From an uncultured SAR86 cluster bacterium (GTDB taxonomy: Bacteria; Pseudomonadota; Gammaproteobacteria; Magnimaribacterales; D2472): a stretch of 64,000 nucleotides of DNA. Numbering within the stretch: the first letter of the stretch is position 1; every line of letters starts with the position of its first letter. Under the pieces are notes generated by a model, which had not been told where the DNA came from, did no database searches, and saw nothing but the letters and a program-made list of their open reading frames with translations. Both the position numbers and the translations under genes were made by a program. The stretch is from positions 70,299 to 134,298 of the forward strand of contig CACKEY010000002.1 of assembly GCA_902599315.1 (NCBI GenBank), in the 5' to 3' direction. Positions 43,479-46,646 of this stretch are shown here, piece after piece.

Positions 43479-44207
43479 TTATTTTTTTTTCTCCCAGTCA
43501 AACTTTGGCAGAGATCCAAATAAGTCCAATAACCCATCAGACCATTTTTTTGAAAGATCAGCAAAAAATGGAGTTTTAAATTGAAGCTGATCCTCTTGTG
43601 AAATCTCAAAAGAGTCAGCTTTATAAGTTATTAAGTCTATGGGTGGACCAACAGTTAAATCGCTTTTCATGGTTGAATCAAAAGAAACTAATGCGCAACG
43701 CGCTGCATCTCCGATGGACAACTCATTTCGTATTAGCCGATCCAAAATCGGCTTACCGTACTTGGTTTCCCCTAATTGAAGAAACGGTTTGATTTCAGAG
43801 GTCCTTATATAATTTCCAACAGGATAAATCATCATCATCTCAGTTTCCTGACCTTTGATTTGGCCTCCTAAAATAAAGTTTGATCCAAGATTTGTATTGA
43901 CTGAAACACCATCAGTATTAGATCTTTGCCAAGAGAGCATACCTATGTAATGGGCAATTTCATCAAAATTTTTACAGGTATTTAAACTAGTGGTGGGATT
44001 CGTAGCTTCTAGATCTTCTCTGATAGTTTTATAAACAAATTGAGATGTAGAAAGATTACCAGACGTAAGTAAGACAATGCACCTATCTCCGACAGAATAA
44101 GACAACATTTTTTTATGAGTTGAATAATTATCCAATCCAGCATTAGTTCTAGAGTCAGAAGCCAATACCAAACCTTCGTTTGTTTTTATTCCTATGCAGT
44201 AAGTCAT
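43479..44207 (-). CDS. Anbu-type proteasome-like (Ntn) protease
   Basis: MTYCIGIKTNEGLVLASDSRTNAG: Thr directly after Met, Asp 17 residues later, and a Lys pair near position 32. Length is about 240 aa. It neighbours cp-ATP-grasp and alpha-E genes. Confidence 0.8.
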   Translation of the reverse strand: MTYCIGIKTNEGLVLASDSRTNAGLDNYSTHKKMLSYSVGDRCIVLLTSGNLSTSQFVYKTIREDLEATNPTTSLNTCKNFDEIAHYIGMLSWQRSNTDGVSVNTNLGSNFILGGQIKGQETEMMMIYPVGNYIRTSEIKPFLQLGETKYGKPILDRLIRNELSIGDAARCALVSFDSTMKSDLTVGPPIDLITYKADSFEISQEDQLQFKTPFFADLSKKWSDGLLDLFGSLPKFDWEKKK

Positions 44208-44271
44208 TAGTTATATGTATTTTAAATTAACATACTTTATTGGCATAATTATTGCACCATTAGAGTTAAAA

Positions 44272-45705
44272 ATGAATAAAACTTTTTCTTATCAATCAAG
44301 CATTTTTTTTGATGAGTATATTGATAGCAAATCTTCTCCACGCAAAGGATATAAGCGTTCAATAGATTTTTTTCACTCACTCTCTCCATCTGAAAGAGTT
44401 CATTATACAAATCTTTGTGAATCTTCTATTTCTTCTATGGGTGTTACCTTCCAATTAGACGCAAATGAACTGCAAGATAGATCATGGCCATTAGATTTAA
44501 TCCCAAGAATTATTGCATCAAATCAATGGAGGTTAATTCAAAAAGGTTTAATTCAGAGAGTCAAAGCCTTAAATTATTTCATCAATGATGTTTATAACAA
44601 ACAGGTTTTTCTTGAAAAGAATCCTGTTTTAAAAGAGCTAATTTTAGAATCATCAAACTTTCTACCTGAATGCATGGGCATAACGCCAAAAAATAAGGTT
44701 TGGTCTAATATATGTGGAACAGATCTTATAAGAGATGATAAGGGAAAATTTTTCGTCCTAGAAGATAACCTAAGAGTACCTTCAGGTGTTGCATATATGC
44801 TCGAAAATAGAAATATCATGAAAAGAGTTATTCCTGATTTATTTAATAGTTATGCTGTAAATCCAATTGACGATTATCCCTCTCAACTTTTTAAATGCCT
44901 TGGTGAAGCATCCTTCAACACAAATGCAAATAAAAAAATTGTTGTCTTAACTCCAGGAGTGTTTAATTCTGCATATTTTGAACATTCATATCTTGCTCAA
45001 CAAATGGGAGTTGAGCTAGTAGAGGCTTCTGATTTATACGTATCTAGGAGTAATAATGTTTTGATGAAAACAATAAATGGTCCCAAAAAAATTGATGTAA
45101 TTTATAGAAGAATCGATGATGTTTTTATTGATCCTAAAGTATGGAGAAAAGATTCCTCACTAGGAATTCCAGGAATTTATAATGCATGGAAGAATAAAAA
45201 AATAGCAATAGTAAATGCTCCAGGATCAGGTGTTGCAGATGATAAGGCTGTCTATGCTTTTGTTCCCAAAATGATCAAATTTTTTTTAAAAGAAGAGCCG
45301 ATTATTTCTCAAGTCAAAACCTATGTGTGTGCATTTAAAAAAGACCTAAATTATGTGACCAACAACATCGAAAAATTAGTCCTCAAGCCTGTCAATGAAT
45401 CGGGAGGATATGGAATACTCATTGGGCCTCAATCATCAAAATCAGAATTAAAAAAGTATAAATCTAAGATATTGAATAATCCTAGAAACTTTGTTGCTCA
45501 ACCATTAATAAAGCTTTCAACCTCACCAACGTTGATAAATAAAAAGATAATGCCACGTCATTTAGATCTAAGACCATTTATCTTATCTGGTAAAAATTCA
45601 TTTGTAACACAAGGTGGGCTGACCAGGGTTGCTATGAAAAAGAATTCTACAATAGTTAATTCTTCCCAAGGCGGCGGAAGTAAAGATACTTGGATTGCAG
45701 ATTGA
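44272..45705 (+). CDS. circularly permuted type-2 ATP-grasp protein
   Basis: C-terminal [27 protein letters not shown] signature and colinear DUF404/DUF407-type layout. The ATG at 44272 is preferred over the track start at 44215. Confidence 0.85.
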   Translation: [477 protein letters not shown]

Positions 45706-46646
45706 TGCTTTCAAGCAACGCTGAAAAAATATATTGGCTCTCAAGGTATATCGAAAGAGCAGAAAATACGGCTAGATTAGTAAACGTTAACTTCGATCTA
45801 TTATTAGATATTCCTCATGATAGTGTCTCAGACTTCATTCATCTTGTTGAAATTACTAGTGACTTAGAGCAGTTCAATTCAATCTTGCTTGATGAAAAAA
45901 TGTTTTACAGTTCAAGTGTTTCGGCAATGAAGAATGTTGTTTTAAACTTTGTAATTTACAATTCAGATAATCTTGGATCAATTACTTACTCACTAGAGAT
46001 GGCAAAATATAATTCAAGGTATCTCAGAACCATGCTTCCTAAAACTGCCTGGGAACAATTTAATAAATTACACTCAGAATTTTCTTTGTCTAATGAAGAA
46101 AATCATAACACTGAGGTTCTGCATCAAATTATCAGGAATTCAAAGACTTTTTTTGCAACAATATCTGATGCAATGCATCGAGATCATGTTTTTGACTTTA
46201 TTAAATTGGGAAGATTTATTGAGCGAGCAGACATGTTGTCAAGAATTATTGAGGATCAAATTCTAAGAAAAGATACAAAAATCCCAAAATATTATGAAAA
46301 TCTTCAATGGATGAGCATTCTTAAATCAGTGAATGGGTTTGAGTCATTTAAAAAAATTAATAAAGGAGAATTGAGACGCAGTAATGTTTTAGACTTCATG
46401 GTGAAATTAAAAGAATTTCCAAGGTCTATCATTTTTTGTATAAATAGACTTATAGCTGTAACTAAATATCTCCCAAATTCTGAAAACCTTAAACTAAAGC
46501 TAATTCAAATTAAAAAACAAGCTGCCAAACTTAACGAAAAGTCTACCGATAAACAAATCTTGGCAATATTAGACTTATTGCAGTTAGGCCTAATTGATTT
46601 ACATTTAGAAATTGAGAAGAAATTCTTTAATAGAAGCCCTATTTAA
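45705..46646 (+). CDS. alpha-E (DUF403) domain protein
   Basis: AEKIYWLSRYIERAENTARL opening motif and a second FIKLGRFIERADMLSRII repeat. The start overlaps the ATP-grasp stop (TGATG). Confidence 0.85.
   Translation: MLSSNAEKIYWLSRYIERAENTARLVNVNFDLLLDIPHDSVSDFIHLVEITSDLEQFNSILLDEKMFYSSSVSAMKNVVLNFVIYNSDNLGSITYSLEMAKYNSRYLRTMLPKTAWEQFNKLHSEFSLSNEENHNTEVLHQIIRNSKTFFATISDAMHRDHVFDFIKLGRFIERADMLSRIIEDQILRKDTKIPKYYENLQWMSILKSVNGFESFKKINKGELRRSNVLDFMVKLKEFPRSIIFCINRLIAVTKYLPNSENLKLKLIQIKKQAAKLNEKSTDKQILAILDLLQLGLIDLHLEIEKKFFNRSPI

Follow-up and report, generated by a model that had tools for sequence, protein, structure and literature searches.

Anbu, a relative of the proteasome that has had no assigned function since 2008, is known from several structures (PMC5666114, PMC6376114, PMC8665760); it forms a dodecameric split ring and binds proteasome inhibitors at its Thr1 (PMC5666114). 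In the operons of P. aeruginosa, where Anbu is PA1733, and of Y. bercovieri, the gene order is ATP-grasp, Alpha-E, transglutaminase, Anbu, and this four-gene order has been described as predominant (PMC6376114) or frequent (PMC5666114). The ATP-grasp protein of Y. bercovieri hydrolyses ATP (PMC6376114). The Pup-proteasome of actinobacteria (PafA/Dop with the 20S particle) follows the same logic, with an ATP-dependent amide ligase next to a Thr N-terminal nucleophile (Ntn) hydrolase of the proteasome family, and is the basis of the tagging hypothesis; it differs in that PafA is glutamine-synthetase-like and not an ATP-grasp enzyme. The present analysis deals with a 64-kb stretch of SAR86 DNA (called here the window, GC content about 35%), in which a first-pass annotation had recognised an Anbu gene with ATP-grasp and Alpha-E partners. 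The identity of this three-gene module and its functionality now appear practically certain, and its control by nitrogen status is probable. All three open reading frames (ORFs) are present where they had first been placed, and the module reads as follows.

43479..44207, minus strand: Anbu, Anbu-1 type proteasome-beta-like Ntn hydrolase, 242 aa, without propeptide (Met-Thr1); assigned from Pfam and PDB matches, residues and dN/dS

44208..44271, no strand: divergent control region between Anbu and ATP-grasp, 64 bp; weak sigma70-like hexamers on either strand, no more than expected from shuffled sequence

44241..44256, plus strand: sigma54-like -24/-12 motif TGGCAT-N5-TTGCA, 16 nt upstream of the ATP-grasp ATG; GG-to-GC spacing equal to the consensus

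44272..45705, plus strand: circularly permuted ATP-grasp (type 2), putative amide ligase, 477 aa; CP_ATPgrasp_2 E 5e-150, PDB 3n6x E 7e-140

45705..46646, plus strand: Alpha-E, 313 aa, with two ER motifs (YIERAEN, FIERAD); Pfam Alpha-E E 6e-62

Like the P. aeruginosa and Y. bercovieri operon, the SAR86 locus encodes three homologous proteins, with an Anbu of the Anbu-1 type and Alpha-E directly after ATP-grasp. Control by nitrogen limitation is likely shared as well, through NtrC in P. putida and through sigma54/NtrC-like motifs and a glutamine riboswitch in SAR86 clades. Unlike the canonical operon, the SAR86 locus contains no transglutaminase, and Anbu is transcribed divergently from its own promoter instead of being the last co-directional gene. 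Anbu and ATP-grasp stand head to head across a 64-bp gap, the ATP-grasp stop overlaps the Alpha-E start (TGATG), and a convergent ORF of 269 aa begins 18 bp beyond Alpha-E, all as first described. Neither a Pup-like small ORF nor an AAA+ unfoldase was found beside the trio in the SAR86 loci.

The product of 43479-44207(-) matches the Pfam Proteasome profile (E 1.5e-7) and the solved Anbu proteins of the PDB, the closest being the Anbu-1 consensus protein 5loy (E 2.5e-65), followed by 5nyj (5e-59), 5nyf (1.9e-58), 5nyw (2.6e-51) and 5lox (5.9e-51). The alignment with solved Anbu runs end to end (residues 1-239 of 242) and takes in the C-terminal helix H5 extension. Its N-terminus, M-T-Y-C, places the catalytic Thr directly after the initiator Met, without a propeptide. 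In about 100 Anbu sequences, Thr1, Asp17 and the mature Lys32, the counterpart of Lys33 in the proteasome, never vary (D18 and K33 when counted from the Met). The Thr/Asp/Lys layout of an Ntn, proteasome-beta-like enzyme first read from the sequence is thus confirmed; of the Lys pair noticed near position 32, the second Lys is invariant and the first is variable. As judged from these residues, the proteasome-type active site is complete. The S1 pocket of Anbu-1 was described in P. aeruginosa as T20, F30, T48, L52 and S55 (PMC5666114). Four of these five residues are conserved in the window protein (T20, T47, L51, S54), and position 30, a Phe in P. aeruginosa, is a His in the window and a Tyr in most relatives. 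Such a pocket looks clearly distinct from the basic one of Anbu-2. Another variation was seen at the N-terminus: the Anbu of L046, L055, L284, L295, L298-L300, L304, L306 and L313, and also of L065 and L311, starts with M-S-Y-C, where Ser, encoded by TCT, TCA, TCG or AGT, replaces Thr as the N-terminal nucleophile. Ser in this role is unusual within the proteasome family.

The two partners were also correctly recognised at first reading as a circularly permuted type-2 ATP-grasp and an Alpha-E protein. The former matches PF14403 and PF04174 (CP_ATPgrasp_1/2) over its full length, with 499.9 and 419.1 bits for cut-offs of 32 and 23.1, and its match to PDB 3n6x takes in the C-terminal SSQGGGxKDTW motif. 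A longer model of 496 aa starting at 44215, which is used by most automatic annotations, was rejected: it overlaps the conserved sigma54-like motif, and the corresponding extension carries an in-frame TAA in the relative L010. The start is thus placed at 44272, at the equivalent of which the homologues begin. The Alpha-E profile (PF04168) is matched over all its positions (1-294 of 294; 210 bits), and the E17/R18 and E173/R174 pairs are invariant in 22 homologues. An AlphaFold2 model of Alpha-E is all-alpha (pLDDT 81, pTM 0.84), and a fold search of the PDB with this model gave nothing significant (best E 0.48, TM-score at most 0.28), so that structure yields no functional clue. NCBIfam holds no model for ATP-grasp or Alpha-E, and none of the trio proteins matches a PADLOC model of anti-phage defence. 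The Alpha-E ATG shares one base with the ATP-grasp stop, which implies translational coupling of the two genes. Circularly permuted ATP-grasp and Alpha-E domains occur in one ORF of about 870 aa, beside transglutaminase genes, in Bacteroidota and some Gammaproteobacteria (L180:4994-7603(-), L125:1823-4381(+), L127:4880-7507(-) and others). These natural fusions support a physical complex of the two proteins.

The loci of relatives were called with purpose-built hidden Markov models (HMMs) for Anbu, ATP-grasp, Alpha-E and transglutaminase. The divergent trio is found in all of the approximately 32 SAR86 species examined, at Anbu identities of 51-100%, and every SAR86 locus shows the same order, ae(-) ag(-) | anbu(+), where ae is Alpha-E and ag ATP-grasp. 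Single-cell and metagenome contigs of SAR86 encode an Anbu 100% identical to that of the window; a complete relative, CP097973.1, measures 1.33 Mb. At least five flanking contexts are observed around the trio (PhoX and a lipoprotein; SDR and a lipoprotein; ProS and thiolase-RecA; a CMD-family gene; others), and insertions among near-identical strains fall on both sides of it, never within. At unsaturated dS, Anbu has a ratio of nonsynonymous to synonymous substitution (dN/dS) of 0-0.05, ATP-grasp one of 0.05-0.11 and Alpha-E one of 0.05-0.08; the Anbu protein is 100% identical, with no amino-acid change, at a dS of about 0.2. Contigs from marine metatranscriptomes cover Anbu in all four runs and ATP-grasp in places; these contigs are unstranded and could contain DNA. 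The view of the first-pass annotation that the gene set is functional is well supported by this conservation despite changing flanks, by the low dN/dS and by the transcript contigs, and the module is read as functional and vertically maintained in SAR86. The missing transglutaminase and the non-canonical orientation are the only features that would speak for a decaying duplicate or remnant of a canonical operon. With dN/dS of 0-0.11, intact catalytic residues, a trio present and transcribed in SAR86 and kept in all its clades, and an Anbu unchanged at a dS of about 0.2, this explanation is refuted and its probability is practically nil. Two records with other labels, L249 (PAQA01000034.1, labelled Rhodospirillaceae) and P0234 (labelled Prochlorococcus sp.), show SAR86-type Alpha-E and riboswitch loci and are probably mis-binned or mislabelled SAR86 sequence.

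Gene arrangements were surveyed at 167 species-level loci, 146 of them with Anbu, in a sample biased towards relatives of the SAR86 proteins. ATP-grasp/Alpha-E occurs without Anbu at 21 of the 167 loci; the arrangements with Anbu include the following.

59 loci (32 SAR86-like, 27 others): divergent trio without transglutaminase

24 loci (22 of SAR11 or alphaproteobacterial single-amplified genomes, SAGs; 2 SAR86 loci cut by the contig end): divergent pair without Alpha-E

8 loci: divergent trio with a transglutaminase beside Anbu

16 loci: convergent arrangements

33 loci: Anbu without ATP-grasp within 3 kb

2 loci: co-directional ATP-grasp, Alpha-E, Anbu without transglutaminase

2 loci (plus 2 order variants): co-directional ATP-grasp, Alpha-E, transglutaminase, Anbu

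Three elements of the first interpretation have to be revised in the light of this survey. The co-directional four-gene cluster had been taken as canonical, and in this SAR86-biased sample it accounts for only two (plus two variants) of the 146 Anbu loci. The reduced layout had been tied to a compacted genome; since 27 non-SAR86 species with ordinary genomes share the divergent trio without transglutaminase, the layout of the window is ordinary and widespread and not a product of streamlining. Among cultured bacteria it is found in Aliiglaciecola, Lacimicrobium, Nitrosomonas marina, Nitrosomonas sp. Nm51 and Thiohalobacter, and it occurs also in Methylococcaceae, Thioalkalivibrio and a SAR202 metagenome-assembled genome (MAG). 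The loci of Aliiglaciecola, Lacimicrobium, Nitrosomonas marina, Thiohalobacter and Methylococcaceae have a three-gene architecture and orientation identical to those of the window; they differ by their protein identity (32-52%), by their ordinary-sized genomes and by the absence of any glutamine riboswitch found there. Lastly, the trio had been called minimal, and the SAR11 locus holds only Anbu and ATP-grasp.

This SAR11 pair (L033-L063 and L117; Pelagibacteraceae and SAGs of uncultured Alphaproteobacteria) shares with SAR86 the head-to-head arrangement and the streamlined marine genome. It differs by its locus, near which neither Alpha-E nor transglutaminase was found, and by an intergenic region that has its own conserved motif, CATAnCnGnTAT-N8-TGCAnTTG, and neither the sigma54 motif nor the glutamine aptamer. 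The coupling of Anbu to ATP-grasp is thus retained in SAR11 even without Alpha-E at the locus. SAR11 provides the closest non-SAR86 relatives of both SAR86 proteins (55-59% identity), and neighbour-joining trees of Anbu and of ATP-grasp each place SAR86 and SAR11 in one clade apart from the other Proteobacteria. This grouping in both trees suggests a transfer of the pair between the two classes, and compositional attraction between low-GC sequences could also have produced it. The conserved travelling core would be Anbu with the circularly permuted ATP-grasp, with or without Alpha-E, the transglutaminase lying outside this core.

The absence of a local transglutaminase was confirmed with an HMM built from ten transglutaminases of Anbu neighbourhoods (Bact_transglu_N and Transglut_core being verified by Pfam for two of the seeds), which gave no match in the six-frame translation of the 64-kb window, even at E<=10. 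At the SAR86 and SAR11 loci, too, no transglutaminase was detected with it out to a distance of 10 kb. The genome-wide question matters since Valas and Bourne found a transglutaminase domain in every Anbu genome, with unlinked components usually predicted in the same regulon (PMC3235984). An unlinked transglutaminase-like gene elsewhere in the SAR86 genome might therefore complete the canonical four-component set, and the transglutaminase would then not be dispensable. SAR11, the closest relative of the module, does encode such a protein away from Anbu: the Pelagibacteraceae SAG L151 carries at 2681-4594(+) a TgpA-type transglutaminase-like protein of 638 aa (TgpA_N and Transglut_core). The empty surroundings of the SAR86 trio speak against this possibility, as does the single Alpha-E locus recovered by a pattern scan, whose matches were listed in full, both in the complete CP097973.1 and in a 1.31-Mb SAR86 contig. 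One Alpha-E locus per SAR86 genome makes a second, canonical Anbu cluster unlikely, the scan patterns being SAR86-like, so that this is weak-to-moderate evidence on further clusters and not a whole-genome test. A codon-biased scan of genome contigs for HAW-x8-GW-x3-D is uninformative on SAR86 genomes: about 120 of 120 matches listed are transglutaminase-like by HMM, and no SAR86 record is among the matches listed (at least 120). A four-component system completed from elsewhere in the genome is, on balance, rather improbable, and the preferred explanation keeps a module that works without an adjacent transglutaminase.

A new lead, on regulation, comes from the Anbu/ATP-grasp intergenic region, which was read for all SAR86 clades; the nitrogen or glutamine control to which this context points had been missed in the first-pass annotation. 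In the window, the sigma54-like motif at 44241-44256 would give a near-leaderless ATP-grasp transcript. All ten close relatives have the motif unaltered, and in L010 about eight other intergenic positions differ. The window holds five motifs of this class for 0.97 expected (0/100 shuffles), with a pattern that was defined post hoc, after the 44241-44256 site had been seen. Predicted sigma70 promoters and intrinsic terminators around the trio are fewer than in shuffled sequence and are uninformative. Perfect sigma54-type motifs also occur away from the trio. One, TGGCACGATAATTGCT at 34322-34337(+), lies between a BCCT transporter gene and a SnoaL-like/416-aa/SDR set, and the pattern is matched at the equivalent place in the related strains L002 and L004-L008; the other, TGGCACAATAATTGCT at 6634-6649(-), is upstream of coaBC.

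A different device is found in clade B of SAR86 (L012-L026; 71-75% Anbu identity to the window), where the spacer extends to about 200 bp. On the ATP-grasp strand of this spacer, 48 nt before the start codon, lies a complete aptamer of the glutamine riboswitch (RF01739). Four copies score above the gathering score of 35 bits.

L014:9846-9899, minus strand: RF01739 aptamer, 66.6 bits

L024:9845-9898, minus strand: RF01739 aptamer, 65.2 bits

L016:9849-9902, minus strand: RF01739 aptamer, 61.5 bits

L020:9847-9899, minus strand: RF01739 aptamer, 37.3 bits

The aptamer is also present in L012, L013, L015, L017-L019, L025, L026 and L249. A covariance model built from the clade-B aptamers detects intact copies in 12 species records and degraded ones in L021-L023; elsewhere in 3.2 Mb of loci, including the cyanobacterial Anbu loci and the window, its best match is unconvincing (20.6 bits, E 0.26, in L308). 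The degraded copies (L021:9850-9901(-), L022:9850-9901(-), L023:9785-9837(-); 30-37 bits by this model) carry changes at normally invariant positions (CGTTCA to GGTTCA, ACGGAAGTAGG to ACAGAAGTTAG) and have lost the downstream U-rich element; they appear to be decaying riboswitches. In the intact copies, the 3' strand of the inner hairpin of the aptamer can form an alternative helix with this conserved U-rich element, 97% paired over nine species for 47-72% in slid controls, with two compensatory pairs. In RNAfold predictions the same U-rich element pairs with the start-codon region. Such a platform fits a translational OFF switch at high glutamine, a direction that depends on this one alternative helix. 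The cyanobacterial type-1 riboswitch upstream of gifB offers the nearest comparison, the SAR86 element matching the full 53-nt aptamer model at 61-67 bits in its best copies. The two differ in their host, which is gammaproteobacterial here, and in the downstream genes, which are circularly permuted ATP-grasp and Alpha-E; moreover, the gifB element is an ON switch, whereas the clade-B platform is seemingly OFF. In the literature, the glutamine riboswitch has been associated with gifB/DUF4278 and, in metagenomes, with glnA, amt, PII and GOGAT (PMC6212724, PMC2864571). Its family, RF01739, has also been recorded in SAR86 MAGs (PMC12379486), and no link of this riboswitch to ATP-grasp, Alpha-E or Anbu was found in the literature searched, of partial coverage (PMC6212724, PMC2864571).

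In clade C2 (L046, L055, L284-L313), TGGCWT-N5-TTGCA stands just upstream of ATP-grasp in nine of nine species, and a second sigma54-like motif lies on the opposite strand just upstream of Anbu and is followed by a Shine-Dalgarno sequence, again in 9/9. Between the two, all nine species have an NtrC-like dyad of the form GCAC-N7-GTGC (AGCACCTAAAAAGTGCA). These three elements are conserved while the sequence around them varies; they are sited at L295:8338-8553 and in the same region of L284, L298-L301, L304, L306, L313, L046 and L055. Clade C1 (L027-L032), with an intergenic region of about 95 bp, has neither riboswitch nor sigma54 motif and carries a conserved inverted repeat, GTTTTGGAACAAAAC, which may be the site of a different regulator. 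The devices of the window clade, clade B and clade C2, three different ones at the same site, all point to nitrogen or glutamine status, in agreement with P. putida, where the Anbu operon was the gene set most induced under nitrogen limitation (PMC3235984, note added in proof); Anbu is not mentioned in a proteomics paper on nitrogen limitation in SAR11. Control of the module by nitrogen status is, on this evidence, reasonably likely.

Taken as a whole, the best explanation, which we consider to have about an even chance of being right, is an amide ligase and an Ntn hydrolase joined in one nitrogen-status-controlled module. Two divergent transcription units, Anbu on one side and the translationally coupled ATP-grasp/Alpha-E pair on the other, would share one short control region. 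ATP-grasp with Alpha-E would use ATP to form an acyl-phosphate and would then join a carboxylate of a protein or peptide in an amide or isopeptide bond, and the ring of Anbu, a Thr-Ntn hydrolase whose S1 pocket is proteasome-like, would degrade or trim the ligase product. Switched by nitrogen status, the module would most likely serve protein and nitrogen recycling at low glutamine, a job that would be done in the SAR86 lineage without an adjacent transglutaminase. The biochemical part of this scheme, a ligase feeding a protease, is a tentative proposal, with somewhat less than an even chance.

The nature of the riboswitch ligand and the biochemistry reported for Anbu also bear on a second explanation, namely that ATP-grasp/Alpha-E makes a low-molecular-weight amide, for instance a short storage peptide or a conjugate of gamma-glutamyl or polyamine type, which Anbu, as an amidase, releases, so that glutamine or nitrogen would be buffered without any protein substrate. 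The closest solved ATP-grasp homologue, 3n6x, was deposited as a 'putative glutathionylspermidine synthase'; the ligase operon of a sister clade is under the control of a metabolite-sensing glutamine riboswitch; Anbu was inactive on standard peptides, and other Ntn hydrolases cleave non-peptide amides (PMC6376114); and the abundance of DUF403/404/407 tracks urea-metabolism domains in marine metagenomes (PMC3597751). However, the dodecameric ring with its many inward, proteasome-like sites that react with peptide-mimetic inhibitors was argued to indicate polypeptide substrates (PMC5666114), the S1 pocket is conserved in the window Anbu, and no transporter or other small-molecule pathway gene accompanies the trio at the SAR86 loci. 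We regard this small-molecule cycle as unlikely.

The amide-ligase and Ntn-hydrolase module has to face several contrary observations. Purified Anbu was inactive on standard proteasome substrates, and in Y. bercovieri Anbu neither interacted detectably with its operon partners nor was stimulated by them (PMC6376114); no substrate, tag or product is established for any Anbu system, nor any partner or role for Anbu (PMC5666114, PMC6376114; as of 2021, PMC8665760). Anbu and ATP-grasp/Alpha-E each occur alone in many genomes, as seen at 25 loci (33 in the tally above) and 21 loci, respectively, and an isolated transglutaminase gene may lie elsewhere in the SAR86 genome. As regards control, the window itself has no match to the glutamine riboswitch (RF01739) and no NtrC-like dyad near the 44241-44256 motif, and neither an RpoN-box nor a GAFTGA motif was found in the window or in the sampled SAR86 loci, which represent a small fraction of the genome. 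The post hoc sigma54 pattern and the single helix behind the OFF direction belong to the same account. Separate occurrence and lack of interaction in vitro would be explained if the two units were co-regulated and mechanistically independent, Anbu being a stand-alone, ATP-independent protease and ATP-grasp/Alpha-E an unrelated pair, brought together by a nitrogen-stress regulon and a shared control region. The different in situ contig depth of Anbu and of ATP-grasp/Alpha-E agrees with this. Yet their adjacency is kept in SAR86 down to 51% identity, in 27 other species and in SAR11 while the other neighbours change, and the Anbu and ATP-grasp trees are congruent, both grouping SAR86 with SAR11. 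Mechanistic independence thus looks distinctly unlikely, and the coupled ligase and hydrolase remain the preferred explanation.

Around the trio, the following feature was read directly from the sequence.

46633..46654, no strand: perfect 7-bp hairpin GAAGCCC-N8-GGGCTTC around the Alpha-E stop codon

This hairpin was missed by the terminator scan because it has no T-run; it is a possible shared transcript end of the convergent Alpha-E and 269-aa ORFs. The latter ORF, at 46665-47474(-), is secreted or lipoprotein-like and has no Pfam match. It shows the highest contig depth in four seawater metatranscriptomes (8-38, for 0-10 in the trio), and it is placed outside the Anbu module because inserted genes (a CsgG pair or a SnoaL-like gene) part it from Alpha-E in other strains. 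On the other side, a flexible island with EthD-family and NTF2-like genes (42611-43458(+), between Anbu and PhoX) varies among the near-identical SAR86 strains L001-L008, and the presence of a 514-aa ceramidase-like ORF (39620-41164) varies likewise. The window also carries tRNA-Glu(TTC) at 48163-48238(-) and tRNA-Leu(CAA) at 55142-55226(+), and no Rfam family reaches its gathering score there beyond these two tRNAs.

The comparative value of these loci lies in an Anbu/ATP-grasp core that travels without transglutaminase and to which SAR86 clades attach glutamine- or nitrogen-sensing elements. In its most specific form, the proposal would make the SAR86 module, with its reduced SAR11 form, a glutamine- and nitrogen-sensing, transglutaminase-independent ligase-protease that recycles protein nitrogen in starvation, the same two promoters being wired in different clades through a riboswitch, through sigma54 with an NtrC-like site, or through sigma54 alone; in this full form it is doubtful. 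If true, it would be the first association of a glutamine riboswitch with a proteasome-family system, and the first with an assigned function outside cyanobacteria. It would also provide a minimal set of two or three proteins for reconstituting Anbu activity; since the conserved core is free of transglutaminase, such reconstitution can begin with two or three SAR86 or SAR11 proteins. The riboswitch on the ligase operon, the sigma54/NtrC-like signals and the P. putida data together make low glutamine a testable condition for the substrate search. Few heterotrophs of the nitrogen-poor surface ocean are as abundant as SAR86 and SAR11, and a role of their Anbu module in nitrogen recycling would therefore matter ecologically.

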